A model generated the notes under the pieces. The model had not been told where the DNA came from. It did not search any database and saw only the letters and a list, made by a program, of their open reading frames with translations. From positions 37,138,001 through 37,202,000 of the forward strand of contig CM114271.1 of assembly GCA_050084515.1 (NCBI GenBank): a DNA stretch of 64,000 bases, in the 5' to 3' direction. Below are positions 23,191 to 47,400 of this stretch, one piece after another (within the stretch, counting starts at the first letter, position 1; the number at the start of each line of letters is the position of its first letter). The DNA is from Blasia pusilla. Lineage: Eukaryota. Made by a program: the position numbers and the translations under genes.

Positions 23191-23329
23191 ACGAGACATC
23201 GCTTGCATTTGCAAAGACAACCAATCGTTGGGGACTTTTGCAGGATTTTCCAACTCAGGGTAGATGTTGTGGCTCGTCGGATTGCTAAGGGTTGCCTCGG
23301 AACTATGCGTTTAGGGATAGAAAAGCGTG

Positions 23330-23960: not shown

Positions 23961-24050
23961 GTGTTTTTCACGTCCAGACTTCCATAACGGCCAACACGTC
24001 ACCGTCGGAACGACGATGCGACCCAACGGTCATCCCAACGGCTCGAAAAG

Positions 24051-24058
24051 TATAAATA
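24051..24058 (+). promoter_or_regulatory. TATA box of the ParB-MTase gene, copy 1 (equivalent at 39208-39215 in copy 2)
   Basis: TATAAATA is conserved in both copies, ~210-250 bp upstream of the ATG of MTRKK. Confidence 0.55.
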
Positions 24059-24297
24059 ACCGAGTGTTTGCTCATTTCCGGTTTTTTGTTTCGCAATCTC
24101 AATTGCTCTTCTGCGCAGCAGCTGACCAGATGCTAAGGGGCGCTTTACACCACGACTCATCGTGAGACGATTCGAGCTACTCATCAAGGCGACTCATCAC
24201 AACATTAGCAAGGCGACTCATCAAGGCGACTCCTCGAGGCGACTGATCGTGCACAAAAAGCAATTTCCTTGTCCATAGGAGGCATTTTCGGGAACAA

Positions 24298-25410: not shown

Positions 25411-26499
25411 AGATCAAATGCACAGTTCCGAGCTTCTTTCGGATGGAATAATGGACAAGATTTTTTCGAACGATGATGGTGTTTGTAAAAGTTTGTTGAA
25501 TATATTTTTTGGTCTTGTCGAATGTGATCGTCTATGTACTCCGAGGACTTATTTTTTATAACCCGTCGGATTTCCACGACTTGCAACTTCTCACTTTTTG
25601 ACCACTGCACCTATTTAACCACTTCCAGGCAACTTGTCGGATTCCAACAGGTTGGCTGCGTGAGTGATCGGACTCTTTCCCTGTTGGTCCAACTTTAGAG
25701 GCATTCTGGCGGGCTTCTTCACTTTGACACCTTCCCCCGGTATCGTCAAACAAGGCGTAGGCTTCTTCTCTTCTCTAAGATGTGTTGGATTCCTACTACC
25801 TGTTGGATTGCCATCATGGTATTTCCAAGGACGGAGCATATATTGATACTGGATGGGTGTCACATTGCAGAGCATACAAGATATATTGCCGAGGAAGGCG
25901 GTGGGACTCAAATCAGGTTACATGGGACCGTTATGGTGTACCTAGGGGGGGGCCAAGGTTCTCCAATTCGCCAACATTTTTTATCCCAGTCTGCAATCGG
26001 CCAGAGGAGCCACTTGTATCCCAAGACATTCCTTTTGTACAGGAACCTAGGAGAGTTAGGAGTAAATTTGTAGATGACGAGGTTGAAGAAATCATAGACT
26101 AGATCAAATGTACATTTCCGAGCTTCCTTCGGATGTAATAATGGACGAGATTTTTTCAAACAATAATGGTGTTTGTAAAAGTTTGTTGAATATAATTTTT
26201 GGACTTGTCGATTGTTTTCGTCTAGCTACTCATAATGTTTATTTTGCAACCCGTCTGATTCCGACGCGTTGCAACTTTTCACTTTTTGACCACTGTAACT
26301 TTTCAACCATTTCCAAGCAAGGTGTCGGATTCCGACAGGTTGGCTGCTTGAGTGATTGGACTCTTTCCGTGGAGACCAAATTCTGAGGCATTGTGGCGGG
26401 CTTCTTCACTTTAGGCTCGTTCCCCTAGTATCATCAAACCAGTCGTAGACTACTTTTCTTCTCTAAGACGTGCTGGATTCCTATAACCTGTCGGAAGGC

Positions 26500-28197
26500 C
26501 CCCTTCCTTTTGTTATGCCTTTTGTGAGGAAGACATGGGATGCTGTAGACATAGCATTGCTCTTGCCCGGTCTTGTTGGCATGCCTCCACAAGTGAAATT
26601 GTTTGACATGCTTGTGACAACCTCCAAGAGGAATGAACGCTTTCAGCTCCACTTATGTTGGGGCAAAGGGCATTTTCATGAATGTTCAATCCCTGCAACG
26701 ATGGCGATGTGAGAAGGGAACAAAAATAGCTCAAAATTCAAAGAAGTAAGCTTCTTGTCGGAACCAGATGGGTTGCAAGGCCGAGGCATCCCATGAACGA
26801 CTCTGCGACGTGTCAATTCCTGACGTGTTGCAACATCCAGGAACCACCTAGTGCAACCCGTCCGATTCCGACGTGTTGCAAGTAAATTTGGCCATGCGAC
26901 TTGCAACCCGTCCTTTTCTGACTGGTTGCACACTCAGGCAACCCATCAAACCATCCTTTTCCGACTGGTTGCACTCTCAGTCAACCCGTCAAATTCCGAC
27001 GGGTTGCAAGTAAATTTGGCCGTGCAACTTGCACCTCCTCGGTTTCCGACTGGTTGCACACTCAGGCAACCCGTCAATCAGCGACGGGTTGAACGGGTTG
27101 AGCAACCTGTCGCATCCGACAAGTTGCTTGATTTCTTTGGTTTTAAATCCCTATAGTGACCACGCTTCTCAACTTTAGCTGCAACCCTTCAAACAATTTT
27201 CAGCGAGACAAATTAGTGAACTCACTTCCCGCATGAAGTTTCCCCATTGTCTCATTCGTACAGTCCACCAACTCAACCAAGAGCATAACTCTTTGTACTT
27301 CCCCTCAATCGCATGTTTCCTCCACCACCCATGAATTTCTTCTTGGCATTCCATGGTATGTTTCAAGGTTTTGTTGTCCTTGCAGCCTTGGAGTAGAGTG
27401 ACATGCTCCGTCCTCTTATTCTCCTTGATGCAAGATTTGGTGTACCGGGTCACAGACTGTTGCCAATGGAAAGCATCCGACCTTTCTCTCTTCGATTGAA
27501 CCTCCTCACCCCAAAACACTTCCCTGGTAGCAATCCACCCTTGGTTGTGCATTATCCGCCATAAACCCATAAATTTCCGAAGGTGGCCTTTTTTTTCCTT
27601 CATCACCTCCAATGAGAGTAACCAGCACATCTTCAAACTGCCAACGTCTTCTGCTTTTACTTCACATACAAATATAGTTTTGAGTCCCTTCTCCACATGG
27701 TCATAAATGTGAGCACCCATTGTCAACCATCCATTCAGCACTGTGTAGCAAATATCAAAGCTTACCCAACTTCCGTAAAGATCTTCCCCTTCCCTCATTC
27801 GATCTGTAAGATCAAGGCCACTCGACGGACTTGTCGTTGATATTTTGAAGACATAGGCCCTGGATCCTTTGCCTCCATGGCCCATGAACTGCCATCTCTT
27901 AATGAATGGAAATCTAGAGTTGGCCTTGATTCTGGAAATAGCATCCATTTCGGCCGTCTTTCCATCCAGTACCCATATTTGACGCAGCAAATTCGAGAAG
28001 CATTCAGGATCGGCGAGAAATGCGAGATTTTCCCATGGTAGTTTTTGCTCAGCAGCCGTGATCTCGCCCTGACCAGGGATTCCAAGAAGTTGTTCACAAA
28101 ATTGTGATGTTGTTGTTAACTTGATCACTCCACGCTTTGAACCCGGAGAGTTTCTGTAGACCTCGGCCACTTTATTTGCCATATCCTCCTTGTTTAC
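26500..28197 (-). pseudogene. Mutator-like (MULE) DDE transposase, catalytic half; exons ~28197-27225 and ~26692-26500
   Basis: WVSFD (first D, ~27755), GFMADNAQ (second D, ~27555, across a frameshift), DAFHWQQSV (the MULE C/DxxH motif). After a GT-AG intron comes PNISGAESVHSSW (E, ~26643). Confidence 0.75.
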
Positions 28198-28539
28198 CAT
28201 ACGGATTATGTCGTAGAGTATAGTGTGCTAGTAGAGGACATTCCTTATGTAGGACCGTAGTGGCTTGGTAGAGATGCGGTTTCATACATAGGGTTGGGGG
28301 TGACTTTCCCAGTAGGGCCCGCTCTTAGGTTGGAGGATATAAGGTGGAGTGCACTCTAAGAACAATCAGTTCTTTGAGTTGAGCCTGTTGCGTTGGGAGT
28401 TAGCCTTGGTAGTGAGTAGAGCCCTTGGCTATGGTGTTTCCCGCAAGCTTTGACCTAGATTCTCCCATCGTGGAGTGGGTTTGGCTCGATTGTATGTGAT
28501 TCTATATGTGTTTTATGACAGTAGGTCTTTCACGGATTT
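28196..28539 (+). repeat. 5' LTR, the part alignable to the 3' copy; lacks the first ~98 bp, true 3' end unresolved
   Basis: ACCATACGGATTATGTCGTAGAG..GGTCTTTCACGGATTT is near-identical to 36847-37170. Confidence 0.85.
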
Positions 28540-29716
28540 CACTCCAAGAACTGCAGTAGATCGATGGTAGCTTCGATTGTAGATCAGTAGGATCTGGTTA
28601 GGGCTGATTGTGTACTCAGCCGTGGATGTTCGTGGCTTGTGGCCTATGTTGGAGGTGTGAATCTCGTGCGTGGTTGGTTGGGAAAGAAGGGCCTTGCTGA
28701 GAGCTTTCCAACGCGCTTTAAATCGCCGGATTTCATCAAGGGAGTTGGAGGCTTCGAGGCAACTCGTGGTAGCTCGGGATGAGTGGGCGTGAGAGGCGGA
28801 GCAAGGAGCAAGCAAGCTGCTTGCTTGGGCGTGAGGCAATTTTTGCAGGATTTGGGATTTGAGTGTTGCATAACTGGTCACCTATCTTTGGGCTATTCTG
28901 CCTGGAGGACGCTTAACTGCTGAGTTCTTTACTATGCTAGTGTTCACACTGTTGTAGCTCATTTGGTGCTGTTCGGAGATGTTTAGGCGCTTTATGCATC
29001 TCAGGTTTTTGGTTGATGTACCTCTAGCGCATAGTACGGTGTAGCCTCTCCATGCAGGTGATATTTTTAGGTGCTGCGAGTTCGACTAGCACGTCATCGA
29101 CCCGCGGTGGAGTAGCTATTGCGTTAGAATTGTGTGGTGGGTTTTGTGGATTCAGGGGGCACCACGTTTGGTGAATTATGTTACCTTGATTTCCATTTGT
29201 GGATTCAAGGGGCACCACGTTTGGTGGATTATGTTACCTTGATTTCCATTTGCAATTGGAGGGTTGTCGTTGGACTTCTTGTGTTTGGATCCCATCCATC
29301 AGTGCTTCTTGCTTGCGCGCCCATTGTTAGGGTTGACGCTGATTTCCAGAGTAGTGTTACTCCTGTGTGCTATCGGTAGTGAGGCTGGAGGGATGACGAG
29401 TAGACGGTGGGAGGCTTCTTGTGGTGATGACAAGTTAGGTTGCCTGCACCCATAGCTAGTAGAGCTAGAATAGTATAGCGACATCGACGTCACTTGGTTA
29501 TTTGGTGGTGGTACGGCATCGGCGTTGGTCATCACGAAGCTGTCGGGTGGTCTGGTTGGGGACCGTGGTGCGGACAGTGGTGGTTTCACACGGAGTGGAT
29601 TTAGGTATCGGCTACCTTTTCTACTTCCAACGGTTGATGAAGAGGAGGACGAGGGTGTTCCAAACATCGAGTCTTCTACGTTGTTATCGAGTGTTGCAAC
29701 TCCATTGATTTGGGAC

Positions 29717-30914
29717 ATGGACGGTGGATATGGGGCCATGAAGGGCCCACGACGATACTTGGGTGCAATGGGCACCATTGAGTTGGAGGACTTCATGTAG
29801 GAGTTTGATACGTGGTGTGATATGCAGATGTTGCGGAACGCCACGTTGTTTACACCCTTCTTGGCTTGGAAGGGGTTGTTTCAACACTTGGAAGGACCAC
29901 CCATGGATGATTACCATGAGTTTAGGAAGGACCATGTTGATGAGATTGAGGCATGGAGACAATATTGGTCTCCAGGCTATGTGTCTATCACCCATGGTGG
30001 TATTGGTAGTAGTGCTCCTACTATGCCAGCCAGCCCGACGTTGAGTGAGCCGAAGTGGGGGTACCAGTGGAGGTATTAGTGGGGGTACTAGTGGAGGTAC
30101 TAGTGCCTCACCATCGTTCAGCCCGGTTGCAGAGTTCTTCAAGAGGTTGAAGAAGAACTCTCAGGGAGTGAAGACGGAGAAGTTGAGGAGTCTTCAGGAA
30201 TTTGAGCGAAAGACTGGTGAGAGTCTTCGTGAGGCATACACTTGTATGCGACGCTTGATTTCAGTTACCCAGGGTGTGATTGAGGATCAGGCAGTCCCGT
30301 TTTGGTATGGGATCTTGGACAGAGATTTGCGCCGTAGGGTACATGATGCTACTCTTATGAGTGATGATTCATCCACATTGACCCATGTGTTTGCTCTATC
30401 TGAGAAGATTGAGCTTAACATGGTGAAGGAGAGAGTGGTGACATCCGCATTCAAGAGGGGATACAACTACTACTTCGTGTTCAGTTGACCCACCTCACGG
30501 TCTCGTAGTAGTGGTGGTGGTAGTAGTAGTGGGAGTCATGGGGGGTACACACGACCTCAGTTAGGTCCTAGAGGGACACTTGCGCAGAGACCATTGCCTT
30601 CATTTGCTGCCCCGCAACAAGGACAATTATGTTGGACATGTGGAGGTGATCATGTTAGGAAGTTTTGTCCCCAAGAGGATGGGAGACGGACTTTGGAGGA
30701 TGGGCCTCAGTCGGCCCCAACTCGGTGTGATCATTGCGGGAGACCAAGTCATCCTCGAGAGCGTTGCTTTGATCTTCATCCAGAGTTGAGATCAGGCCGC
30801 GGCCGTGGTGGAGTAGCTCCGAGAGGCCGAGGTGGTAGAGGTGGACCAGTGGTTGGAGAGCCTACGGTGGCTACCCCTACCACTACGACAGTCACTATGG
30901 GCTGCCAGGATTGA
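29717..30914 (+). pseudogene. Gag with two CCHC zinc knuckles
   Basis: LRSLQEFERKTGESLREAY (retrotransposon Gag pattern), CWTCGGDHVRKFC and CDHCGRPSHPRERC, then RGRGG repeats. Broken by stops and frameshifts. Confidence 0.85.
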
Positions 30915-31559
30915 GTAGTTGGAGCAGAGTTGGCTACTATGGTGGTATCCAAAGATAGATCAGGTTCGGGAGCAGGGCTTCCACCTCTTATGGAGGGATG
31001 ATCTCTCTTATATGGCGAGTGCAAAGACAAAGGTTGAGGCATCACCTGCAGCTTTCGAGAGGAGCCACTCGAGCGTTAGAGCCACGTGGTGCTACTGTGG
31101 AGTTGGACCCACAGAGGGGTGAGGCTGGGAGGCAGGCTAGGCTTCCCGAGTCATTCTTGTTGTATGAGGTGCTTAGGACTCCACCATGGTTCCCTCAGCG
31201 GCCTATTGAGCCGGCGCAGTGGGGACTAAGGCATCTACATCGCGTGTAGTAGACACGGATGCACCATCCGATCAAGATTGTGCGGATGGCAACCGATGTT
31301 GGGATCCCCATTGTTTTCGGCCACGGAGCTGATGGCTTTAGGAGTTGACTTAGCTCATGTATTTCAGCTAGCAACCACGTTGTGTGAACGTGGGGGTGTT
31401 ATTGCTACACGTGTTGAGGTGGATGAGAGTGTTGCGGTGGAGCGACCCTCTATGTCGGTGTAGCATTGAGTACGATGTGCTACTTGGCGGGCGGCGGCGG
31501 CGAAGATGGATGCATTACCGGCCCGACCACCATTGATCGTGAGAGGCTTACACCTCGTG

Positions 31560-31960
31560 TATGTATGTTGGACAACCGGGTGGGATCTTCCGATTGGTTA
31601 GTCCTACACGGGGCAGTGTATAGACCGGATAGAGTCTTGTTAGACTCACGGTGCCCAACCTTGATGTTGGGAAAGGCGGCATGTATTGGTTTGGGTATTC
31701 GGAGGTCAGAGCTTGAGCCTTGCCCATTCCAGATTCAAACATCACTTGGAGGATCCAATGATAGGTCTCAATTAATGACACGGGAGAAGTTTTCTGTACT
31801 GTTGAGACCAAATCATGCGACTGATAGCTCCCGGTTGGGAGTATCTACGGTAGTCACATCAGCCGAGTCATATGATGTACTAGTTGGAGGAGCAGTATTG
31901 TACCCGATGGGTTTTCAGATGGATTACTGGATTGAGACAGCGTCTTATAGACCTGGTTGG
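31560..31960 (+). pseudogene. Retroviral-type aspartic protease
   Basis: VLLDS(R/G) active-site motif and the downstream YDVLVGG motif. Confidence 0.7.
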
Positions 31961-32368
31961 CAGTCCGGGGATGGACGTATGAGCCAAGTTCCTATGAGAT
32001 TTATTTCTAGGGCTCGACCAGGAGGGTCTTCCCCAACAGTGTTAGCGTCTATGGCTGGTTTTAGTGGAGTAGTCACTTGGCCAGGAGACTTTTTGGAGGG
32101 TAATATTTATGCTATGGATTCTCCTGCGCGTGAGGAGGTAGAGGAGGTCCCTATTCTTGCAGCAGTGGCATCCTCATCGTTGGATGTGCCACTTTGGAGT
32201 TCAGGCGGTGCACTACGGCAGAGGCGTCGCCTAGTGCAGAGGAGGCTTGGTGTGAGGTCATTATACCTCGACAAGGAAGAGGAGACCCCACGGCGGACTC
32301 CTACTTTTGGTCCAGTTGGGTTATCCCCTTTGGATACTACACCCATTGTATGGCAGTATCCGCCGAAG

Positions 32369-33330
32369 GGCATTTGTGTGTTAGATCTCTTTGGTGGGAT
32401 TAGCACTTGGTTTTTTGCAGATGTTGCCGGTATTCCCGTGCGGAGATACGTGTATGTGGAGCGAGATGAGACGGCCCAGAGAGTCTCATCCCGACATATT
32501 GGTCAGTTGATGCGGAGATATCCTGAGTTGTTGCCGCCATCAGCTATTCGTGGGTACCAATGTGCTTTACCATCACACATTGCATTGTTGGGGGCGCAGG
32601 ACCTTGAGAGGGTTGGTCCTGTGGATTTGGTGATTGCTGGATGGCCATGTCAGGGTCATACACGTGTTGGTCGTGGTGAGGGATTACATGACCCTAGGTC
32701 TTGATTTTTTTGGGAGATGTTACGGGTGTTACGACATCTTCAGGTTCACCAGGCACGTGCTCTAGCTTACATTTTGGAGAATGTTCCATTGTTGGATGAC
32801 ACTCGGACCCGGATGATGGCGAGTGTTCATGAGGTGCAGTCTTGGATTGGACCAGCAGTGTTGTTGGATGCAGCGTGAGTTGGCTCGCGTGCACATCGTC
32901 CACGCTTGTGGTGGACAAACTTGTTGCCTAGGGAGGTTCTCGTCAAGCATATGATGCAAGGTCAATGGGATCCTTGCCTTACCGTGGATAGTATCTTGGA
33001 TACTGGGCGACTTTCTCAAGTGGTGAGGGTTATTGATCGGTCACCCATGGCAGTGGTGAACCGTGTGGGCCAGCCTAGGATGGCACTACCCACATTTGTG
33101 AGTTTTCCCTCGTCACATGCCTATAGAGAAGGTGATCCTGGGCTTGTATGGGATTCTCATGTGCGACAGTTGGTGGAGCCTAACGCTGATGAGAGAGAGC
33201 GTGCGATGGGATTTGCTACTGGTGTGACAGCGATTGCTGCTATTTCTGAGGCTTCACGACGTCATGTGTTGGACCTGAATTGTTTGACTTGGATTTTGAG
33301 TCTTGGTATGGCCGAGCAGCGTCGACTTCG
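32369..33330 (+). pseudogene. DNMT3-like C5 cytosine DNA methyltransferase domain within Pol
   Basis: Ordered motifs: I VLDLFGGI, II YVERD, IV VDLVIAGWPCQG (32642-32653), VI YILENVP (32777), VIII AHRPRLWWTNL (32891), IX ERERAMGF. There are stops/frameshifts between some motifs. Confidence 0.9.
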
Positions 33331-33713
33331 GACTATGTCTGTGGGTCTTCCACCCCTTGTAATGAGCTCGATGGCTACCGGGACGGTAGAGGCATCGGCT
33401 GGAGGCGAGGAGAGTAGTATTTTGCATCCTTGGAGTAAATGGGATGTAATGGCTGGGCATGTGGAGTTGGTTGCTCATGTTGGTGGAAGAGTTATTTGCT
33501 CAGATGATGGTGTAGCTAAGGGTGTACCATTTTGTGAGGGGGTTGCGTAGCAGCCAATGTCATCGTCCTCTCCCTCTAGTGTGCTAGTGGAGGAGACTTG
33601 GGAGCCATCACTTGGGCCCAAGCTTACGGGAGGTGAGAAACGACGCTTGACAGAGTTCCTACGTGCTTATAGGAGTTGTTTTGCCTTTAGCATGAAGGAG
33701 TTGGGTTCTCTGG

Positions 33714-35000
33714 TTGGACCTGGTATACGGAATTGATTTGGCTAGTGATACGCCAATCTTCCGTCATCCCTACCGATATAGTGATATGGAGAGTAGGACG
33801 TTGGACCTTTTGGAGGCTGGATTAGTGGAGTTGTCGCATGGAGAGTATGCATCAGCCATTGTCATGCCTGCTAAAAAGGATATGCATGGCAACTACACGG
33901 ATAGGCGGATGTGTGGAGATTACCGTCCTATCAATCGAAAAACCAAGGCCGATAGGTATGCCATGCCTACCCCTGAGGAGATCTTTGATGTGGTGGGACA
34001 GGCAAAGATTTTTAGTACTTTGGATCCTCGGGTAGGATACCATCAATTGCCGATTCGAGAGAGTGACAAGGCCAAGACAGCATTTTGGGGTGTCAACTCT
34101 CATGGCAAGGATTGTTTGTACCAGTGGAAATTCTTACCCTTTGGGTTGAAGAATGCACCTGCCGAGTTTCAGAGAGTGATGGACAGGATCCTAGGAGGGT
34201 TGGATTTTGTTCGGTGTTACATTGATGATATCTTGGTGTTCAGTAACACGGTGGAGGAGCATCAAATATATTTGCAGATAGTGTTTGAGCGGTTGAAAGC
34301 TCATGGTCTACGTTTGCATCCAGGAAAGTGTAAGTTCTTCCATGAGGATGTTGAGTACTTGGGTCATGTGATCTATCTAGGTGGTTTGGGAGTTCAGCAA
34401 GCAAAGATGGAGGCTATTGCAGTTATTCCGCGTCCGGTAGATGTGAGTAGAGTTCAGGCATTCATGGGATTGGCGAACTACTATCGGAGGTATGTGAAGG
34501 GATTTAGTGCTATGGCAAAGCCTTTAAACCAATTGCTGAAATCAGATCAAGAGTGGCACTGGGGAGATGATCAAGAGAGAGCTTTTGTGGAGCTTAAGGC
34601 CCAGTTGGTGGCGGCGCCTATCTTGAGGAGACCTATCAGAGGGCGCCCATTTTAGTTACACACTGATTGGAGTAGGTTGGGACTTGGAGCGGTGTTAACA
34701 CAACATGATGATGAGCACATGGAGTTTGTGGTGGCCTATGCAAGTCGTTTGAATAATGCAACGAGTCGTCGCTATAGTTCATATGAGGGAGAGTGCTTGG
34801 CAAGAGTGTGGGGGCACACTTTAGGTGTTACTTGTTTGGTACGAGTTTACCCTTGTTCTTGATCGGCGACCGCTCAAGTGGTTGATGGAGTCGACAAGCT
34901 TACGGGGGAAGCTTGCACGGTGGGCTCTTATCTTACAGAGTATGACTTCCGAGGTGGTACATAGACCTGGAGTTTCCAACCTTGATCTTTGATGGGTTGA
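33714..35000 (+). pseudogene. Gypsy reverse transcriptase and RNase H
   Basis: RMCGDYRPIN, GYHQLPI, KTAF, LPFGLKNAPAEFQR, CYIDDILVF, YLGHVI, LHTDWS..GLGAVL, YSSYEGECLA. Confidence 0.95.
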
Positions 35001-35399
35001 GTAGGAACCCATGTACTAGCCAAGAGGATACATTGGGGCTAGATGGCATGGCGAGGTTGATGAGGAGATGGTGCGAGGTTGGCATGCATCCGCCTTTTAT
35101 GTTGGTTAGGTGGACTCTAGTATGGAGGATCACATTATATCTTACTCGAGCCGGAGGATAGGTGGCCACCTTGAGATCCTAAGGTTGGAGATGGTGGTAC
35201 GGATCGGTGTGATATTCATGGTGATGCATTGGTGTTGGAGTTCCTCTTGACCAAGAGGGTGCCAGGCATAGTGAGTGCCAAGGAGCAAGACCGTGTTCTT
35301 CAACGTGCTAAGAGGTATCGATTGAGGGAACACATATTCTCGCGTGTGGGAGGATGGTAGAGTACGAGTAGTGCCACATTTGGCTCGAGAGAGAGTGTT

Positions 35400-36580
35400 G
35401 ACATGCCCATGAGGAGTTGGGACATTTTGGGGTAAAGCGACGTATAGCTTACTCCTTGGCGATATTGGTGGCGTGGCATGCATACTCGGTGCACAGATGG
35501 TGTCACGTTGTATGGTTTGTGACCGGCGAGGGCATCATTCAATGCCCCTACACCATAATTACACCCCTTGCCTATTATGGGGTTGGGTTACCGTTGGAGT
35601 GTGGACTTTGCGGGACCTTTTGTTGGATCCCATGCGACATCATCGATATGTGTTGGTGATGGTGGAGCACTTCTCCAAGTGGATTGAGTTGGTGGCATTA
35701 CGGACAAGGCAAGTGAGGAACGGCGTATGCGTTTCTTGATAGAGTGCTTAGTCATTTTGGTGCATACTAAAAGTCTTGACCCACGGGTACTGAGTTTGGT
35801 GAGTTTCGGTCTTGTGTGACAAGGCGTTGATTGATCATCGGACCACGTCTCGAGATCATCCAAAGGCGGATGGTTTTGAGCGTGTGGTTCACAGTGAAGA
35901 GGGCATTGCGCAAGTATGGCCTCTGAAGGGCATCTTGGAGGTAGGATATTCGATTTGCAATGGTTAGCCATGGGGTATAGGTTGATCGCCAAGCATCCTT
36001 GGCTTCCTTCTCACCTTGCTCTGCCCGAGATCAGACTTGCCAAGAACAATTGGTCGAGTCTAATGAGGTGGTGAACCTTGATGACCCAGAGATGTGGATG
36101 AGAGTGTGTTCTCGGGCATAGCTCTTCGGAGAGTTATGCCAATAGCCTTTGAGAATCTTGCCATTGCTCAACACAGGGATACGTTGCGGTATGCAACCAA
36201 GAGTGGAGGTTATCGACCATCGATTTGTAGGTTCCATGGGGACTATGTGTATTTGCAGCAGATTGCAAGACAACGTTGGATGTGACGACAGGCGCACTAT
36301 TTTACGAGTTTGCGAGGTGTTAGCTTTTGGAGTTCTCATGTTGGAGGGTCGTGATAGAGTTGTTTCATGCGCCATGTCATCTTCCAAATGTGGATGGTAT
36401 CTTGTTGACCCAAGCTTAGCCATAACGTGCTAGCTTGAGATGCATGTTGTGTCGTCTCTGTAACGCCACCCTTATGTTGGTGTGTGATCGGTGTTGTAGG
36501 GGTTGGCACATGATGTGTTTGACTCACGTATGGATGTTGTTCCCTTTTGGAAGGTGGGTTTGTCCTCAATGTACTTAGGA
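35400..36580 (+). pseudogene. Gypsy integrase with C-terminal PHD finger, heavily frameshifted
   Basis: HEELGHFG..CMVCDR (HHCC), WSVDFAGP, VMVEHFSKWIEL, then CDRCCRGWHM..WVCPQC. Homologous to 318-1467. Confidence 0.85.
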
Positions 36581-36748
36581 GAGGTAGATGACTTGATCTT
36601 TGCATGATATGGATTGGATGTGCGACTTACGATGGGGCAACCTAGCACCCGGCCTTCCGATTCGGGCACCCAAGAAGATGTATAGCATGTAGTAGATGTA
36701 TAGGGCTACGGGAGTTAGAGGACCTAACCGCTTGATTAGGGGGGGAGT

Positions 36749-37268
36749 TGTGGTACACTTGTATTTGTGGATACTCTCGTCTATGTTATGTATGGTATGT
36801 TAGCGATGTATGTTGTATGACGATGTGGATTTCGCATTTTGTCATGACCATACGGATTATGTCGTAGAGTATAGTGTGCTAGTAGAGGCCATTCCTTATG
36901 TAGGACCGTAGTGGCTTGGTAGAGATCGGTTTCATACATAGGGTTGGGGTTACTCGGTTGGGGTGACTTTCCCAATAGGGCCCGCTCTTAGGTTGGAGGA
37001 TATAAACAAAGTTCTTTGAGTTGAGCCTGTTGCGTTGGGAGTTAGCCTTGGTAGTGAGTAGAGCCCTTGGCTATGGTGTTTGACCTAGATTCTCCCATTG
37101 TGGAGTGGATTTGAGATTCGATTGTATGTGATTCTATCGTGTTTTATGATAGTAGGTCTTTCACGGATTTGGTTGTGGTACACTTGTGTTTGTGGATACC
37201 GTCTATGTTATGTATGTATGTGAGTATGGTATGTCAGCGATGTATTTTGTATGACGTGTGGATTCGCA
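36749..37268 (+). repeat. 3' LTR (36749-37170, truncated) followed by a second copy of the LTR start (37174-37268)
   Basis: TGTGGTACACTTGT begins at 36749, right after the PPT, and again at 37174. Confidence 0.85.
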
Positions 37269-38170
37269 CGACATCCTTGATGTGTCTCTGAATTGCATCA
37301 CTCACAGGATGAGTGTGGGAGCCAACATGAACTGCCAACCTTGTGTACTCTAACGTGGAACCCAAGTCGTGGACAATGAAAAATATGTATGCAAGACACG
37401 CTCCAACGCAGAAAGGGGATGCTTGACAATGAGGACATCGATGGCCTCCCGGCGGTATGGTGGCACCGACCTCATATGGAGTTTCTGCATTCTTGGGAGG
37501 AAATTGCGACGTATTGACCCACATGTTGCGCTCTAGATACAGGCATGCATGACTTTTACACACCAAGGCTCCAACGTATTGGCGGCAGGAGACAATCCAA
37601 GGACAATGTGGAATTGAAGCACTAGTACGTTGAATCCTGCACCATCGATGACAGGACTTTCGTCCATATAGCGTCCTCCATCTTTCTTTTGAGCAGGAGC
37701 AGCAAGTGGAGGCAACTCAAAAATGGAATTACCATCGTACGTGGGCGGAAAATTGTCGACAAGAATGTGCTTGAACATTTTCAAGGTCTGAGACAATAGC
37801 AAACTATTGCCTGATACTCGCACTAAGGTTGATAACATGAGGAATTTCTTCAGGAAGTACAACATTGTAACGAACGTATGAAGTTGGAGTCGATGCCGGA
37901 TCTTTTGAGCTAGGAGTTGCAAATGTAGAGCTCGGTGCACTAGGAAATTCTTGACCGTCTACTTGGAAAAATGAGGAATTCAGAGGCAAGCTGTAAACTC
38001 TGTATTGACCATTTGCTAGAGGTAGGAGATTCCATACTTTACGGTCTGCAATCACTTGCTAGACTGTCTCACGTATTATGTCCTCCGTACTATCCACCCT
38101 AACATCCTTGGATACAAAGATGGTTCCAATTTGGAGAAGAAATCAAACTGAGAGAAAATTTTCATCCATT
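37268..38170 (-). pseudogene. N-terminal half of the MULE-like transposase, with a GCM/WRKY-like Zn-binding region
   Basis: CPHCQASPFCVGACLAYIFF..RLAVHVGSHTHPV (Cys cluster plus HxHP). It reads in frame into the 28197 half once the retroelement is removed. Start codon uncertain. Confidence 0.65.
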
Positions 38171-39417
38171 GGTATGAAAGACTCACGAGCTTGCGGTCGA
38201 ACGATTTCTGATTGAGGAAGGGCCGCAAGATGACTACCACAAGTGAGCTTCACATAATTATCCACTCCCAGAAGATTCCACCGGGAGGAGACTGAGAATA
38301 AGAATGAGGATAAGAATGGGAATGGGTATGAGAATGAGAATGTTCAATTTATAGTGAACAGGGACTCAAATTCTTTTGACAGAATTTGACTAACAAGATA
38401 AAGTTTGGTGGGTGAGATTGTCTAACATTATGGATTCAATTCTGTTGCAACCAGTTGGAGTTCCATGGGTTGCAGAATTTGGGAATGAGAGACGTGGGTT
38501 GCGAAGCACCCAGTTCCATTTTTTGTTTCCGTATCCCAATGCAAATTGGAAGCCGTCGGAGTCCGTTGGGTTGGTACCCCCTTCATGCTGACCAATGGTC
38601 TGTTGAGACTATTTTGCTAGCATCAAACACGAGAAATCGCTTGCATTTGCTAAGGTAACTAATCGCTGGTGATTGTTAGGGGATTGTCCAACTCAGGGTA
38701 GACTTTGTGATCCGTCGGATTGCAAGAGGTTGCCTCGGAACTATCCGTTGTCGCATTGTTACCCGAGGGATAGAAAAGAGTGCAACCTGTCTATAACCAA
38801 CGGGTTGCCCAGGTACCTCGCCTATTACCCCGAGATGAGGGCAGCGTGCAACCCGTCGGCCTTCGATGGGTTGCGCAAGTGCCTCACCTTGTAACGCTTA
38901 CATGAAGGAAGTGTGCAACGCATCGGCCTCCGACGAGTTGCGCGGGTACCCCGCCTTGTTATCCCAAGACGAGGGAAGGGTGCAACCCCCCGATCTTTGA
39001 CGGGTTGCACGGGTACCTCGCATGCTTGCCCCAAGATGGCGGAGGCGCGCAACCTGTCGGAATCCCACGGGTTGCCATGATAGCTTGGCTAGGACGGATG
39101 CCTCCAACCTGTCAGAGACCCTCGGGTTGGTGGTTTTCACGTCTAGACCTCCATAACGGCCGATACGTCACCATCAGAAAGACGGTGCGACCCAACGGCT
39201 CGAAAAGTATAAATAGGCTAGGGTTCGCTCATTTCCGATTTTTCCTTTCGCGATCTCGATTGCTCTTCAGCGCAGCAACGGACCTGATACCAAGGGGCGC
39301 TTTACACGGTGACTCATCGTGAGACGATTCGAGTGACTCATCCGAGCGACTCATCAAGATGACTCATCGTGCACAAAAAGTAATTTCGTTGTCGAGGAGG
39401 AGGCACTTTCGGGAACA

Positions 39418-42400
39418 ATGACGAGGAAAAAATCTCAAGCAAGCAAGGCTATGAGCTTCACTCCCAAGTCCAGGACTCATGCGTCACCATCTCCAGGGCC
39501 TCATTTGGCCAATGAGATAAGGTAGCAAGAGATCGAGGAGCCTAAAAGGGAAGCGGAGATGCACATGCAGGAGCTTCTTGCAAAACGTGTTAAGGAGGCG
39601 CTTGAAAAATAGAACGCAGAGGCTGAGGCGTCACATGCCTTGAAGAAAAGGATCACCGAGGAGAAGCATGAAAAGAAGCGTCTGGACGCGTCGGTGAGGA
39701 GAGTAGAATTGGAAAAAGCTCGAAGGGAAAAAGAGATTGCCATTGAAGAAAGCCCGCCCCGTCCAACTGAAAGTGTTGAGATGCAGGAAATGTCCCCGAT
39801 GAAGTCCGGGGATACAATCAATATAAAATCAGCTGAGGAGACGGCCGAAGTTCAAGTAACGGATGATGAGGTCATGAGAACCGCCAGCGTGGAGATGGTG
39901 GATATCCCTGAACAAGCAGGAGAGCGGTTTTCCTCGTCTCTTAGCCCGTCGGAAGAAATTGACCTCTATCGGATCGACGAGTTTCCAGTGGACTTGCCAG
40001 TTGCTGTCCCATAGTAGTTGGCGGGCCAAGACATCGACCCAATCTTCGAGCGGGTAAGATACGATCTTTGTTCTTTGAGTTATGTGAAGGTCCATGTTAC
40101 AATTCATTGGAAATTCAATGTAGTTTATTGACCTTGTCCCGGTTGTGACAAGTGGTAAAGCAGATGGCACTGATGGAGGGCCATAACGCCCCGAGAATTC
40201 CACTTTTCCGACTGCGGAAAATGGAGTATGCCGCGAAATTCAGTCTGAGGAGGATATTGCGAAGCTGAAACAATCGACAGCGACTACATCCTACGTCGAC
40301 AACTTCCCTCCGTTCTAGGTTCAGCCTTACGATGAACATGGAACCCAAACGCTGGTGACTGAGGAGGACTTGGAAGCGTTCGACACATTTTGAAGGATGA
40401 GAGATCAAGAATTCAGAAGAGCGATTGAGGGGACGGAATTCAGCTGGATGCGGAACCTCTATTTCTTCATATGGGATGGATACCACAGGTTCATGGCGTG
40501 GACCCAGTTTGAAGAGGAGCGCCAAAACTCATTGGAGGCGCATTTCTACGTGAAGGCACTCGTGCTACATCCATACCCTCATCACATGGCGATAGTGGGA
40601 ATGGCCATGCATGCCATGAACACGTAAGTTTCCTCTTTCTTTATTTTGATTGCTGCAAACCGTCAGACTCCGACAAGTTGTTTAACTAGTGCTAACAAAA
40701 CATCAGATGCCTTAAAGCAACTCGTCAAAGTCCGACGAGTTGCTTGACTGGCCGCTGTTTTTAGGATGTTTTTGGCCAAAAGAAACTCTTCGGAGTCCGA
40801 CGAGTTGCTTGACTGGCCGCTTTTTTTAGGATGTTTTTGGCCGAAAGCAACTCGTCAGAGTCCGACGAGTTTCTTGACCGGACGTTGTTTTTAGGATGTT
40901 TTTGGCCGAAAGCAACTCATCAGACTCTGACAGGTTGCATGCGCCGACATGGGTAGGTCATCGGAGTAGAGGAGCTTGATTTTTGGCATCAAATTGCAGC
41001 TTTACTTGAAATTGCACAACATGTCATACTCCGACGGGTTGATATGTCCACTTTTTCCGCGGCGACCACTCTCTGAATACAAATTATCTGACAACTCGTC
41101 GGAGTTTGACGGGTTGTAATTAGGCAATCACAGATCTGAATGCAATCCATCGGACTCCGATGGGTTGCAATATTTAGCTCGTAGCTACCATTCCAACCAT
41201 GAGGTGTGGCGACCTGTCGGAGTCCGATGGGTTGTAGGAACTGATGTAGCTTGCAAAAATTCTAATATTGTGTTTGGATGTGCAAGATTGTATTTGAGGG
41301 GAATGTCACCCACCACTGGATCCAGGATTGCGATCGAGTGAAGAAAGTGCTAACGACGCACTTGGTAGAGTATAAGGGGTTCTTGGGCGACGCCTTTGTA
41401 AATGAGATGTTGGCGAAGGGGGCTCAAATAAAAAAAAGACTTGGGCAAATACATTTATTTCTCAAGATGCAGCCGTGACAATCCTTTGCTGGTCGAAGAT
41501 ACAGACCGCCAAGAAGAGCGCTTCATTGGAGCTGGAGCGGAGGGAGAACCTGTCTTTGTCTGAGCGTGCTAAGTTCATCCAAGTTGCAGTATCTAAAACT
41601 TCAAAATACACTGCAAGCAAGATGCGCTACATCGCCATTCTCAACCCCGAACATGGCCCCGATTTCTACAAGAAGCTGAAGGCGATCATCAAGCGCCAGC
41701 GGAAGAGTGATGAAGATCCGCATGGTCGGATTGGGGAGAAAGTGTCTCTCGAACGCGTCCATAGATTTGCCTTGTCTGGAATTTTGAAATTTAGGAGAAT
41801 CCGACTGATGAAAATCAGTCTCGAGGGCACAGAGGCCCAAAAGACGGCGGCACACCATCCTTCAGGTGTCTCTGATCCAGTGATCTCCCACTGGCTCCGT
41901 GAATGGTCATTCTGGGACGCGTTGCGGCTTCTCGGGAAGTCCATGCTCTTGGGTCTCAAAGCGGAGCTGAAAAAATAGAGCCACTTTCGGAGGAAGCAAA
42001 CTTGGAGAGTGTTGAAGATTTTGAACTTTGGCTGGATGACATCCGGGACTAGCCCATAAAAAAGCTAGGCTTCAGGACGATGTTCAAGGATCACATCCTC
42101 CCTCAGGCAGACCTTGATGAAGAAATAGAGGCGAAGAAAAGGGATTTCGCAAAGAAAAAGCGAGATCTTCAAGAGTAGGCGGCTGATGCATCTTGACTAA
42201 GAGCTGCCCAACGCATGGTGTTCAGGTACCTTGTCCATTGTAAGAATGCAGGTACGTGGCGAGAGACATTTTCCATGTTCGAGATGGAGATGGCTCAAAG
42301 CATGTCCGACTGGGAGGTGGAGAATTGCCCCATCTAGCTGGCCTTAAACAACCCCGAGGACATCACCGATAAAAATCTTTGACGTGTGTATGATGTAGTG

Positions 42401-44400
42401 GCCATAGGTAGGGACGACATCCCGAATTTCGTGCAGCTTGAAGACTTTTTCGAAGGAGATGCGGAGGAGCAAGCCCTCGAGACAGCAGAGTTGGTGTCCA
42501 AGGTCGTCACCGCCAAGGACAAATCTACAGCGGGTCTCAAAGCCAAGGCGAGGGGATCGAAGAAATTCGAGGCTGAGTCTTCCAAAAAAGAGGCTGAGAA
42601 TTCAAGGCATGAGGCGGAATCGTCCGGGCGAGCGGGGAGAGAGGGTCGGACCAGGTCCTCCGCCAAAAAAACTCCACCAGAGTGTAAGGTAATAGAGACC
42701 CCAACAAGCCGACTGCAAACTCGGGAGAAGCGGAAGCGAGAGGTGCGAGGTTTTTCCCAAGGAGCATACCAGGATGTGGAATACATTCCATCATCCTTGG
42801 GAAGACATAGAGAAACAACGACTTGGAAAATCGTCATCATTCACTGCACGAATATTCTGGATGAGCTGCAAAGTTTCAGTTCCCAAGCGTCGACACCTGC
42901 CATCGACAAATTGACAACGCAGGGACGGAAGCTTCAACGAAACGGGCACGCTCCCTCAATGGTCCATGGGGAGGTCGAGGAGGTGGCGGTGGATCTCCTC
43001 GTCGCTGATTTGCCCTCTGGGGTTACGCTTGTGGGACGAGAATCGATCTGACAATGTCCCAGACTGGAATGTCCCTCTTTCTTATGACCAGATCGCGCTT
43101 CTATTTTCCTTTGCATACGCTTATCTCATCGACAAGGGTTGTTTCTTGGTCTTGACTGGAGGGAGCGAGGACAAGCTCTTCAACGTGCAATGCGTCAAGA
43201 GGTCGCTGAAGTGGAGGACGGCGCAATCGTGGGTCATCAAGAACGAGTACCCACTCTGATCGGCGATGAGTCAAATCCGGTAAGGGCTCTAAATCCATAT
43301 ACAAATTTTCTTGCTCTGACAGGTTGTATCTCTGCATGCAACCCGTCGGATTGTCTGAGCTGGAGACTTCGGTGGTGCAATCTATCTGAAAGCGACGGAT
43401 TGCAAATTTACGGCAAGTCTCCATTGGGTGAATACAACCCGCCGGAACGTGACGGGTTGCAAGTGCTTATGCTTTTCCTTGTGTTTTTGGAATGATACAA
43501 CCCGTCTGAAAGCGATGGGTTGCTCTTAGCCAACCATGGGCTGCTCTAAGCCAGCAACCCGTCGCCTTCCGACGGGTTGCTAATGGCAAAAAAAATCACT
43601 AACACTTATAAAACAACCCGTCGGACACCTACAGGTTGCTCCAATATTAGGACTATAAGTTCTCTGCGGTTAAGCGAAGTTCTTTGGGGACGAGTTGCAC
43701 ATTGTGTCACCATATTGATAGTAGACTTTTCTTGTTGTTGCATACTCAAATTAGCTCTTTCTTGTTGCTGACATTGTTTCCAACCTGCTTCTTTACACAT
43801 GGATCATTCCTTTGTGTGTTGTTTTGTAATGCCCGAGCACAACTTCCAACTGTTTCAGATCCTCGATCTAGTGGATCCATGCTCCGATGGGTACAGCTTA
43901 GATAGTTTATACAATTACCCCCCAGGGAATTTACATGCAAAATGGTACCCCCTTACTTGGAGGAAGGGAAAAGTCGTCAACGCTAATGCAAACGCTCATC
44001 GAGCTCTACTCAAGGCCGGGTGACTTGGTGTTTGACTTAGTGGGCTTAGCAATTGCGAGTATCAAAGGCGCCTGGCATAATGGCAGGAACATTCTCTGCC
44101 TTGAGGGAATGCATGAACTGTTTGACCTTTGCAAAGAGGAAAAGGCAGATTACGACAGGCTAAATGGCAGGCATTACGACAGGCATACAACTCTCCTCCG
44201 AAGCCGAGAGCTCGGTTCCAGACCCACCATTGGTAGTGACACCATCGTCACTTCCCACGATTCTGAAAATCGGGAGGGCAAGGCCAAAAATAATTCTGGA
44301 AGAGCTCTCGGACGATTACGAGTGAGTTCAAAGAACTCAAGGACTTGACTGCAACGTTTTGGAGTAGGGATTTATTTGATGACGAGACAAAATAATTCAT
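39418..44400 (+). pseudogene. ParB/Srx-like domain plus beta-class N4-cytosine/N6-adenine DNA methyltransferase fusion; exons ~39418-40053, ~40151-40623, ~41287-43279, ~43800-44400
   Basis: ParB-like IPLFRL..REIQSEEDIAKLKQS..FFIWDGYHRFMAW. MTase KIVIIHC..VDLLVADLPSG..WN..YDQIALLFSFAYAYLIDKGCFLV, then EKSSTLMQTLIELYSRPGDLVFDL..SIKGAWHNGRNILCLE. GTAAG donors at 40054, 40624 and 43280. Several stops and frameshifts. Confidence 0.75.
40725..40945. repeat. ~63-bp tandem repeat (3-4 units) of the palindrome inside an intron
   Basis: AAAGCAACTCGTC..GTCCGACGAGTTGCTTGACTGGCCGC..TTTTAGGATGTTTTTGGCC repeated. Confidence 0.9.
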
Positions 44401-47400
44401 AGAATATATCAAATGTACAGTTTCGAGCTTTCTTCGGATGTAATAAAAGACAAGATTTTTTCGAACGATGATGGTGTTTGTAAATGTTTGCTGAATATCT
44501 TTTTTGTCTTGTCGATTGTGATCGTCTATGTACTGCAAAAATTTATTTTGCAACCCGTCGGATTGCCACGGGTTGCAACTTTTCACTTTTTGACCACTAC
44601 ATCTTTTTAACCACTTCCAGGCAACTTGTCGGATTCCGATAGGTCGGCTGCGGGAGTGATTGGACTCTTTCCTTTGTTGGTCCAACTTTACAGGCATTCT
44701 GATGGGCTTCTTCACTTTGGCACCTTCCCCTAGTTTGGTCAAACAAGTCTTAGGCTTCTTCTCTTCTCTAAGACGTGTTGTATTCCTACTACCTGTCAAA
44801 TTGCCATGATGGTGTCTCCAAGGACGAAGCACATATTGATACTGGATGGGTATCACCGTGCAGAGCGTACAAGATTTACTGCTGAGGAAGGCGGTGGGAC
44901 TCAAATCAGGTTACATGGGACCGTTATGGTGTACCTAGGGGGGTGCCAGGGCTCTCGAATTCGCCAACATTTTTCGATCCCCGTCTTCAATTGGCCAAAG
45001 GAGCCACTTGTATCCCAGGACATTCCTTTTGTACAGGAACCTAGGAGAGTTAGGAGTAAATTTGTAGATGACGAGGTTGAAGAAATCATAGACTAGATCA
45101 AATGTACATTTTGAGCTTCCTTCAGATGTAGTAAAGGACAAGATTTTTTCAAACAATAATGGTGTTTGTAAAAGTTTTCTGAATATATTTTTTGGACTTG
45201 TCGATTGTATTCGTCTAGTTGCTCAGAATGTTTATTTTGCAACGCGTCTGATTCCGACGGGTTGCAACTTTTCACTTTTTGACCACTGCAACTTTTTAAC
45301 CATTTCCAAGCAAGCTGTCAGATTCTGACAAGTTGGCTGATTGAGTGATCGGACCCTTTCCCTATGAGAACAACTTTTGAGACATTTTGGTGGGCTTCTT
45401 CACTTTTGGCTTGTTCCCCTTGTATCGTTAGACCAGTCGTAGGCTTCTTTTCTTCTCTGAGACGTGTTGGATTCCTACTACGTGTCGGATTGCCATTTCG
45501 GATTCCCAACTACATGTATTTTCGTGGGTGCATGATGGAATGGAATCACTTTTCAAAATCTTTCCTTTGTTATGGTGAGCTTGCTTGCAAGGGATGCAAG
45601 CCATTTGATTCCGACGGGTTCCAAGAGTTGCAACCTGTAAAATTTTGACGGATTGGGAGGGGTGCAACTTATCGGTTTCTCTGATTTAGGATCTGAATGA
45701 AGGGACATCGGTTCCTCTTTACTCCAGATTGTTAACAATATTTTGGTTCAATTATTGTCTACTATGTTCACATTTCACAAAGTTGGTCTTTATTTGAACC
45801 TTTCATTGAGATGAGATTGCTACCTATGGTCAAATTATTTGCCAATGGTCCTCCAACAAAAATACCCATGGGCACAGCTTACTGTAGACTGAGACAGGCA
45901 ATGTGAAGAAACTTAGGCTCACATGGAGAGTGATGGAAAAATGTTTGTAATGGTCTTATGATATCTACTTGTTTTTCGCCCCCTGGAAAAAGGAGGTTTC
46001 TTTAGGCCCGAATGTGGACCACTACCTACTCTCTTCTAAAGATTTCATGAATTTGAAAGCAAACAAAAATTTCAAATATGTCAAAAATTTTAAGAGAGGA
46101 GGCGGATTTGGCCCTTTTTTTTTAAGAGAGACTCTCCTCTCTTCCTCTCCTTTCTTCCTCTCTCCTGCCAGAATACCAGCCCCCAAGGCGTTGGGACTCC
46201 AATCATGTTACATGGGACCGTTATGGTGTATCCTGGGGGGGGGGGGGGGCAAGGCTCTCGAATTCCCCAACATTTTTTATCCCCGTCTACAATCGGCCAA
46301 AGGAGCCACTTGTATCCCAAGACATTCCTTTTGTAAAGGAACCTATGAGAGTTAGGAGTAAATTTGAAGATGACAAGGTTGAAGAAATCATAGACTAGAT
46401 CAAATGTACATTTATGAGCTTCCCTTTGATGTTATAAAGGACAAGAAGTTTTTGAACCATGATGGTTTTTGTAAACTTTTGCTCAATTGTTTTTCGTTCT
46501 TGTCGATTGTGTTGGTCTAACTACTCGAGGCTTTTTAGTTTGCAACCGTTGGATTTCGACGTGTTGCAACTTGTCAGAATATTTTTAACCCCTTTCAGGA
46601 AACCTATCGGATTTTGACAGGTTGGCTGCTTGAGGGATCCCCCTCTTTTTGTAAACTTTTGCTGATTTTTTTTTGTTCTTGTCGATTTTGTTGGTCTATC
46701 GACTCGAGGCTGTTTATTTTGCAACCCGTTAGATTCCTAAGGGTTGCAACTTGTCACAATATGTTTAACTCCTTTAAGGCAACTTGTCAGATTCCGACAT
46801 GTTGGTTGCTTGAGTGATCCCACTCTTTCCCTGCTAGTCCAACTTCTTAGGCATTCTGGCAGGCTGCTTCACATTTGCCTCGTTCCCCCATTATTTTCAC
46901 ACCATTCTTCTCTAACACGTTATTTCAGAGACGTGTTGGATTCCTACTACCTGTCAGATTCTCATGTCAGATTCCCAATCTGTCGGATTCTCATGGGGTC
47001 TAGGGTGGAATGGAATCACTTGTCAAGATCATTATTTTTTTCTAGTGTGTTTGCTTGTAAGGGGTGCAACCCATCGCATTGCGATGGGTTGCAAGAGTTG
47101 CAATCTATCGTATTTTGACGGGTTGGAAGGGCGCAACCTGTTGGATTCCGACATTTAGGGTCTGAATGAAGAGACATGGGTGCATCTGTTCCTCTTTACT
47201 CTTGACAACTATCAACCTTTTGGTTCAATTGTCGTCTCAATCTGATCACATTTTCTTCTTGATGCATACATTTCTCAGTGGTTGAGAAAATGGTGAAACC
47301 AAATTGTCAAATGCACAACAATCCATGGTATACTTTATGTACCCATTCATGAGCCAACATCATCCAATGATGTCATGAAAGTCTCCGGCTACCATCAGTG

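Follow-up and report, generated by a model that had tools for sequence, protein, structure and literature searches.

The window analysed here, 64,000 nucleotides of Blasia pusilla contig CM114271.1 (assembly GCA_050084515.1, positions 37,138,001 to 37,202,000), is repeat-rich DNA of a plant-like eukaryote. A plus-strand gene of four exons, with an ATG at 39418, a stop at 44346 and about 1217 codons along the best path through its frames, occupies most of a repeat unit located between 38.6 and 45.5 kb. Minus-strand open reading frames (ORFs) resembling a transposase (27178-28227 and 37237-38058) lie head-to-head with this gene, as a first-pass annotation made from the letters of the sequence had described. 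The 38.6-45.5 kb segment is probably a defunct member of a DNA-repeat family that is very abundant and equipped with a methyltransferase accessory gene. The evidence supports the presence of the relic of a beta-class (permuted) amino-methyltransferase inside a eukaryotic gene with several exons, itself part of a high-copy repeat family. Features are collected in Table 1.

Sequence comparisons identify the last exon as a relative, beyond chance, of the beta-class DNA methyltransferases that modify N6-adenine or N4-cytosine. The Pfam family N6_N4_Mtase (PF01555) aligns to residues 23-46 of the exon at profile positions 165-188 (E 0.047, 14.1 bits). A PHROG search returns four families at E<=10, all four of them methyltransferases (best phrog_3008, E 2.4e-4). 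When 50,697 phage records were searched by tblastn, 93 matched the exon, with individual E-values of 0.07 to 4; among the matches listed, 28 of 30 fall under DNA methylase or methyltransferase genes, one falls under no feature and one under a gene labelled 'unknown'. Pfam, phage tblastn and PHROG are three independent libraries, and in all of them methyltransferases rank first for the same 60 residues. In a direct BLASTP comparison, the exon is 34% identical over 73 residues to a 224-residue methyltransferase of the Bacteroides phage BT-TP2 (pairwise E 4e-8), which itself matches PF01555 with an E-value of 1.2e-30. The last-exon ORF is also the sole match, among 1636 six-frame ORFs of the window, of a local profile of 121 phage-type methyltransferases (E 4.7e-6 vs 1.6 for the next ORF), a figure that is not independent, the family having been picked for matching the exon.

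The putative N-terminal half of the domain (42959-43266) is found at the end of exon 3, one frameshift in it being bridged with an X. Over 81 positions (49-129 on residues 7-87), it aligns colinearly with a mixed methyltransferase profile. In this alignment VDLLVADLPSG is placed on ADLIITDPPYG, such that DLPS falls on DPPY, and LIDKGCFLVLTGG is placed on RVLKPGASLYVF. The order of the two halves, motif IV followed by motif I, is consistent with a compact beta-class domain of about 210 residues that would be split by intron 3, and at the level of sequence the statistical backing for a methyltransferase is limited to the second half. The glycine loop, predicted to bind S-adenosylmethionine (SAM), is shortened and degenerate in this copy.

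The motifs on which the first-pass annotation was built are all present, DGYHR at 40475-40489, VDLLVADLPSG at 42989-43021 and EKSSTLMQTLIELYSRPGDLVFDL..GAWHNGRNILCLE at 43968-44105, and the spliced plus-strand gene is, as it had stated, a pseudogene. The best path is interrupted by 12 internal stops (8 TAG and 4 TGA) and by at least five frame changes; this copy is dead and itself functionless. Exon 1 is also conserved in a second copy of the unit (copy A). Exon 2 lacks one base at 40230 relative to most copies, an extra T being present there in 367 of 427 reads. Exon 3 starts with a 190-residue region without family assignment, followed by a charged low-complexity region and then by the methyltransferase N-half. 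A database protein search with the 190-residue piece and the last exon as queries returned no longer relatives. Intron 3 is supported by its acceptor, which is AG in most copies (43798 is G in 500/557 DNA reads), and by 11 RNA reads of run X16, the loose ends of which, before 43799, resemble the sequence with which exon 3 ends. Introns 1 and 2 are assigned from a GT...AG reading only, and no splice joints for them occur among the joints listed (best 15 of 293). Compared with the majority of reads, the window has A/T in place of G/C at 414 of 972 differing positions, and the reverse at 112. Both this A/T excess and the stops, which are exclusively TAG and TGA, are what deamination of methylated cytosines would be expected to leave, and they fit a repeat that was silenced and decayed in this way.

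Copy number and family state were assessed by mapping raw reads of one genomic run (X11, about 1% of which was read) and three RNA sequencing (RNA-seq) runs, all from one organism, on 37200-47200 at a likeness of at least 82%. DNA depth is about 790-1270 over the exons. At 37534-38201, in the transposase-like part, it reaches about 1320-1340; it drops to about 370-570 in the stretch separating the two genes and is about 90-220 past 46218. Only 206 of the 65,285 mapped reads are at least 99% alike to the window, and 43,150 are less than 90% alike. Depth and the rarity of nearly identical reads together indicate hundreds of copies or more, most of which are old. The DNA reads differ from the window at 44049 (594/738), 44052 (590/737), 44053 (711/737) and 44054 (720/737), and the majority letters change V-G-L-A-I-A-S to V-G-L-S-G-A-S. 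With a G-x-S-G majority, the degenerate SAM loop is private to the window copy. Therefore, the FxGxG motif is indeed degenerate here, as had been noted, but this is not the state of the family, most genomic and all RNA reads having G-L-S-G.

Transcripts of the family run in the same direction as the gene: the RNA reads have a strong strand bias, and the convention that makes them sense also gives sense reads for the neighbouring end of a long terminal repeat (LTR). Their depth peaks at 14-34 over 43880-44547, covering the last exon and the 3' end, and is 0-8 elsewhere. The reads over the gene carry the family-majority letters; at 44053 and 44054, all have G (33/33, 18/18 and 28/28 across the three runs). 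Most RNA reads over the last exon carry a replacement, in which 44139 is joined to 44185 through 11 different letters (variant 44139>44185); it is found in 30, 8 and 20 RNA reads (58 in total) vs 3 DNA reads. Being common in RNA and rare in DNA, it indicates that transcripts derive mainly from a rare copy, and the source is perhaps one or a few rare copies, intact or domesticated. The stretch 44334-44817 also lies within the region of the variant last-exon RNA reads. At 45884-46217, RNA strand bias is opposite to the gene (first mate on the plus strand; depth 14-24), and this is a separate minus-strand transcript in the 3' flank repeats.

The unit and its surroundings are rich in a 29-bp palindrome with the consensus TGCAACCCGTCGGA-n-TCCGACGGGTTGCA. 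A pattern search for CAACCCGTC-N7-GACGGGTTG with up to three mismatches yields 38 matches vs 0 expected, all of which are confined to 23330-47125. In addition to the 67-bp arrays upstream of both gene copies, palindromes form a 65-bp array in intron 2 and smaller clusters in intron 3, past the 3' end of the transposase-like gene and in the 3' flank. Of the candidate binding sites, the palindrome is the most concrete. Many joints in DNA reads link distant arrays (for example, 39075>43555, 43581>39030 and 43581>40846, as well as a strand switch at 40629/40871), and the palindromes look like rearrangement hotspots among copies.

Table 1 Features of the locus and of the remainder of the window (+, plus strand; -, minus strand;., no strand)
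Feature	Position	Strand	Description
Copy B, full gene unit	38626-45493	+	Delimited by boundaries common to copy A (local alignments, both ends)
Upstream palindrome array, copy B	38783-39129	.	6 copies, 67-bp period
Exon 1	39418-40054	+	ATG start; charged, coiled-coil-like region; 4 in-frame TAG; GT donor at 40055
Exon 2	40149-40624	+	Candidate ParB/Srx-like segment; 2 stops
Intron 2	40625-41262	+	GTAAGT donor; 8 palindrome copies including the 65-bp tandem array
Exon 3 (long)	41263-43266	+	6 stops, 3 frame changes
Intron 3	43267-43798	+	4 palindrome copies
Last exon	43799-44345	+	Methyltransferase C-half (EKSSTLMQTLIELYSRPGDLVFD-VGLAIAS-..GRNILCLE, motif I / SAM-binding region) and tail
3' tandem repeats, ~690 bp	44378-45496	.	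Further palindromes inside; more onward to 47125
Copy A, internally deleted gene unit	23188-26499	+	Palindrome array, exon 1, extreme 3' tail, 3' 690-bp repeats
Upstream palindrome array, copy A	23330-23889	.	Counterpart of the copy B array
Palindrome cluster	26854-27091	.	5 copies, just past the 3' end of the transposase-like ORF
Transposase-like ORF, C-terminal part	27178-28191	-	350-residue open frame (27178-28227); truncated by the nested retrotransposon
Nested LTR retrotransposon	28192-37273	+	5-bp TCCTT duplication; LTRs 28196-28539 / 36847-37170, 84% alike
Transposase-like gene, N-terminal part	37274-38058	-	Frameshifted; Cys/His-rich; by eye a WRKY/FAR1-type finger
PHD finger at the end of another retroelement copy	958-1464	+	358-1650 is 68% like 35532-36743
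Longin-domain (VAMP7-like) host gene piece	8750-9307	-	E 5.3e-10
ORF resembling a Helitron N-terminal finger by eye	20154-20561	+	No Pfam match
CACTA-type DUF4218 ORF	51311-51787 (region 51311-53659)	-	E 5.3e-34
Copia gag/pre-integrase piece	55466-56140	-	

The minus-strand ORFs are one gene, split by the insertion of an LTR retrotransposon. By eye, the C-terminal part resembles Mutator-like elements (MULEs), with FDICY... as the D-x-x-Y block and D-A-F-H as the [C/D]xxH motif, and in the N-terminal part most reads have extra bases at 37661-37670. The gene is uninterrupted in most copies, as indicated by 1009 DNA reads that pass 37274 leftward into sequence identical at 26 of 30 positions to window 28158-28187.

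The nested retrotransposon does not belong to the system described here. Its reverse transcriptase is located at 33696-34655 (RVT_1, E 2.8e-31). Upstream of it, at 32300-32704, is a stretch resembling C5-DNA methyltransferases (DLFGGIS...GWPCQGHT), which matches the PHROG DNA methyltransferase family phrog_116 (E 9e-6) and, over motif IV, Pfam DNA_methylase (E 0.17). Retrotransposons bearing DNMT genes are described for dinoflagellates and the charophyte Klebsormidium (PMC5890265), and a DNMT-like retrotransposon in a further streptophyte would be interesting in itself. Reads at 36801-37273, in the hundreds for DNA and 68-117 per run for RNA, pass 37273 into sequence resembling the start of the LTR (36841-36870), a hint that LTR-LTR junctions or LTRs in tandem occur in further copies of this retrotransposon.

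Self-BLAST aligns 23614-25114 with 38800-40241 (80%) and 25114-26495 with 44100-45489 (88%). Copy A has no equivalent of 40241-44100, and hence neither DGYHR nor any methyltransferase motif; tblastn with the gene pieces finds exon 1 and the tail only. The window contains no second transposase ORF, and none adjoins copy A. What had been described as a pair recurring in tandem is therefore a repetition of the gene unit, the second copy being devoid of the ParB-like part, the methyltransferase part and the transposase. Other origins were considered for the unit: a Helitron was rejected, as no TC...CTRR ends are seen by eye, and nothing points to a giant virus, in view of its introns and high copy number.

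We propose that the repeat family is most likely a DNA transposon, or the accessory module of one, in a streptophyte (land-plant-like) genome. Its accessory gene has about 1,200 codons in four exons, the last 210 or so specifying a phage/bacterial-type beta-class N6-adenine/N4-cytosine methyltransferase and the N-terminal third possibly a ParB/Srx-like DNA-binding domain. The transposase-like gene, into which the LTR retrotransposon inserted later, stands head-to-head with it. The protein of an intact copy may bind its own element at the palindrome arrays and, once bound, would deposit N6-methyladenine (6mA) or N4-methylcytosine (4mC) there. By analogy with the ParB-like and methyltransferase accessory proteins of algae, such a mark could shield the element from silencing by the host.

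Several results weigh against this reading. The Pfam score of the last exon lies under the curated gathering cut-off of 26.7 bits; the exon finds nothing at E<=0.001 among 1.84 billion representative proteins and no match in NCBIfam, and a search of PDB sequences with all gene pieces gives no methyltransferase match. The N-half has no match in Pfam or PDB. DLPS occupies the colinear place of motif IV, and the score of this half is equalled by 106/2000 composition-matched shuffles for one profile and by 402/2000 and 298/2000 for two others. Were DLPS also the family state, it would be incapable of catalysing the transfer. Accordingly, the amino-methyltransferase of the first-pass annotation stands for the last exon, by homology beyond chance, and not for the DLPS half, which is not significant alone. 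The HMMER comparison with N6_N4_Mtase that had been suggested detects the former, under the cut-off, and misses the latter.

The remaining points against concern the ParB-like segment and the boundaries of the element. The segment LYFFIWDGYHRFMAW (40454-40498) has a hydrophobic strand, DGxHR and then a helix, which is the shape of the ParB/Srx core at the level of a motif. A protein-language-model search (Atlas) gives as leads a DUF6551 cluster (0.92) and a second cluster (0.91), 11% of whose members have ParB_N; DUF6551 is presumably a member of the ParB clan. Searches of the gene in Pfam, NCBIfam and PHROG contain no ParB family at E<=10, so that the ParB_N (PF02195) comparison proposed earlier is negative. 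Phage tblastn with the segment finds no match, and PDB sequences include no relative of it. A single-sequence AlphaFold2 model of the ParB-like exon was obtained, but its mean confidence (pLDDT 37.7) makes it unusable for a fold search, and it lends no support to a ParB/Srx fold.

Comparison with genuine fusions gives a similar result. We collected 11 phage ParB-methyltransferase fusions, one of which scores 9.3e-25 with PF01555 and 0.0036 with ParB_N; their hidden Markov model matches no ORF of the gene at E<=20, the last exon included. Aligned pairwise with a phage fusion, the DGYHR stretch matches best, without significance (E 0.33), at the G-x-H-R-L...DPPY start of the methyltransferase domain and not in the ParB domain. 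A protein search with the methyltransferase alignment yields enterobacterial-type enzymes only and no ParB fusions. As the fusion profile matches none of the ORFs, a direct origin from a bacterial-type ParB/methyltransferase fusion, which the first-pass annotation had assumed, is not established. After four negative profile tests, the ParB claim retains DGYHR and the language-model lead as its basis. Given the algal precedent, the odds that the N-terminal segment is ParB-like are balanced or slightly favourable.

The gene unit (38626-45493) and the transposase-like gene may instead be two separate repeats lying side by side, the 'MULE' being unrelated and the unit being a mobile or dispersed element of its own or the cargo of another superfamily. 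This alternative is possible, if somewhat doubtful. It gains from the sharp boundaries common to the two copies (23188/38626 and 26499/45493), which leave the transposase outside both, from the lack of a transposase ORF next to copy A and from the dip in DNA depth between the genes. Moreover, no terminal inverted repeats (TIRs) enclose the pair: inverted repeats in the window are limited to a 25-bp palindrome motif, minus-strand self-BLAST of the window gives two rows, none of at least 45 bases, and end-to-end alignments of the unit ends score inside the shuffled range (one null computed). The assignment to MULE DDE transposases has also weakened, as no Pfam family is found at E<=10 for any of the four minus-strand ORFs (27178-28227, 37237-37716, 37536-37958 and 37807-38058), and its sole lead is the best Atlas clusters for 27178-28227, ZSWIM RNaseH-like/MULE (0.76). 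In red algae, accessory genes are reported to have caused elements to be misfiled as MULEs (10.1101/2025.02.11.637652).

Other evidence favours a single element. The head-to-head layout is that described for Ectocarpus Sola1 (PMC12477816); depth is of the same order over the transposase and the gene exons, and a palindrome cluster (26854-27091) lies past the far end of the transposase. The unit itself has neither TIRs nor recognisable termini. Its right boundary falls within a palindrome half-site, and rearrangement joints are frequent at palindromes. The boundaries thus reflect either a gene unit that is a separate repeat or rearrangement at the palindromes, where DNA joints are frequent, and the chances that the unit and the transposase-like gene form one common element are about even.

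It is rather unlikely that the methyltransferase-like gene is inert cargo, i.e., a captured or long-dead pseudo-enzyme without a role in the element, with the palindrome arrays representing ordinary subterminal or satellite repeats or binding sites of the transposase. Both catalytic motifs are degenerate in the window copy (DLPS and V-G-L-A), the family is old, as the large share of reads below 90% likeness attests, and RNA depth is low given the copy number. The ends of CACTA and hAT elements usually hold arrays of short motifs. In contrast, most copies keep the G-x-S-G SAM loop, and exon depth at a likeness of at least 82% exceeds that of introns, which fits past coding constraint. Transcripts arise mainly from the rare variant rather than from the bulk of copies, and comparable genes persist in three algal lineages.

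A chance motif match, with no methyltransferase at all, is very improbable and already disfavoured: it draws on the empty searches of 1.84 billion representatives, PDB sequences and NCBIfam and on the sub-threshold Pfam score, but three independent libraries agree on the same 60 residues, the upstream half is colinear, and most copies are nearer to the family motif than the window copy is.

If a DNA transposon with a methyltransferase accessory gene is the correct reading, its most far-reaching form would be at least one intact, transcribed copy, kept by a land plant or close streptophyte relative, the enzyme of which a ParB-like domain would guide to the 29-bp palindromes of the family, where it would write 6mA or 4mC; that copy, possibly domesticated, would be the one with the 44139>44185 variant. 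This form is quite improbable, but if true it would represent a self-marking system of prokaryotic design at work in plant chromatin. The occurrence of DNA amino-methylation (6mA and 4mC) in plants is under dispute, and its known candidate writers are few. In plants, VANDAL elements are the main known source of transposon accessory proteins that bind the element encoding them and modify it. The algal work of 2025 adds ParB-like and methyltransferase accessory proteins to these factors as a novel, putative class. A high-copy streptophyte family with RNA-seq and Hi-C data, a candidate binding palindrome and a transcribed minority copy would be a tractable system, which would allow tests of self-marking by such proteins and of the spread of prokaryotic methyltransferases among eukaryotes through transposons.

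The system has precedents in the literature. ParB-like and N4C/N6A methyltransferase accessory proteins are reported from DNA transposons of algae (PMC12477816; 10.1101/2025.02.11.637652). Systems of this kind have already been described in transposons of brown, green and red algae, and the window gene is possibly the first case from a land plant. Full-text searches, outside subscription papers and supplements, yielded no land-plant example of such a gene.

The closest description is that of Sola1-1_Ec32 of Ectocarpus, a 21.5-kb element in which a 1104-residue protein with ParB-like and N4C/N6A methyltransferase domains is encoded opposite to the transposase strand (PMC12477816). Compared by description only, the two proteins are both long (1104 residues vs about 1200 codons), lie in a large DNA repeat on the strand opposite to a transposase (here a transposase-like gene) and feature a prokaryote-type amino-methyltransferase domain; the N-terminal ParB-like domain of the Ectocarpus protein has a candidate counterpart here. 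They differ in host, a brown alga vs a streptophyte, and in element, Sola1 vs MULE-like by eye, and the copy in the window is a pseudogene.

In red algae, Plavaka elements carry PAG2, which combines PF01555 with SET, and PAG3, which combines a ParB-like domain with a 2OG oxygenase. PAG3 is adjoined by tandem inverted-repeat arrays, its proposed binding sites, and the authors propose that it binds and modifies its own element; such accessory genes pass between superfamilies (10.1101/2025.02.11.637652). Plavaka and the window family share a PF01555-type methylase as the cargo of a DNA transposon, a probable one here, and inverted-repeat arrays beside a gene that is ParB-like there and a candidate for it here. 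In contrast, the methylase and the ParB-like domain are found there on two proteins, with SET and 2OG domains, and here in one gene, with ParB as a candidate and SET and 2OG unseen.

The comparators of the methyltransferase domain itself are phage and bacterial PF01555 enzymes, such as the 224-residue enzyme of Bacteroides phage BT-TP2 and enzymes of about 350 residues from enterobacterial prophages. They have motif IV followed by motif I in a domain of about 210 residues, together with the block K(P/S)xxLxxxLIxxxSxPGDLVxD...GRxxxxxE. The window domain differs in that it is split by an intron within a eukaryotic gene of about 1200 codons, has DLPS in place of DPPY and features a shortened glycine loop. 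Phage ParB-methyltransferase fusions (ParB_N plus N6_N4_Mtase, about 400-470 residues; 456 phage records match one ParB half) have the domain order that the first-pass annotation had proposed for this gene. However, several of their N-termini carry G-H-x-R-type motifs (LAGHGR and VVGHTR) rather than DGxHR, and the two parts of the window gene are separated by about 600 extra codons.

Prokaryotic-type enzymes have also been described in other eukaryotes. In chlorophytes and chytrids, Dam-type enzymes are fused with a helix-turn-helix of the ParB type (PMC4738411). MpDN4MT1 of Marchantia (10.1101/2021.02.12.428880) and N4CMT of bdelloid rotifers (PMC8885841) are, like the enzyme proposed here, beta-class amino-methyltransferases of prokaryotic type in eukaryotic genomes. 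Unlike the window gene, they are host genes and not transposon cargo, occur in low copy number, have an intact TSPPY or SPPY motif and possess proven 4mC activity.

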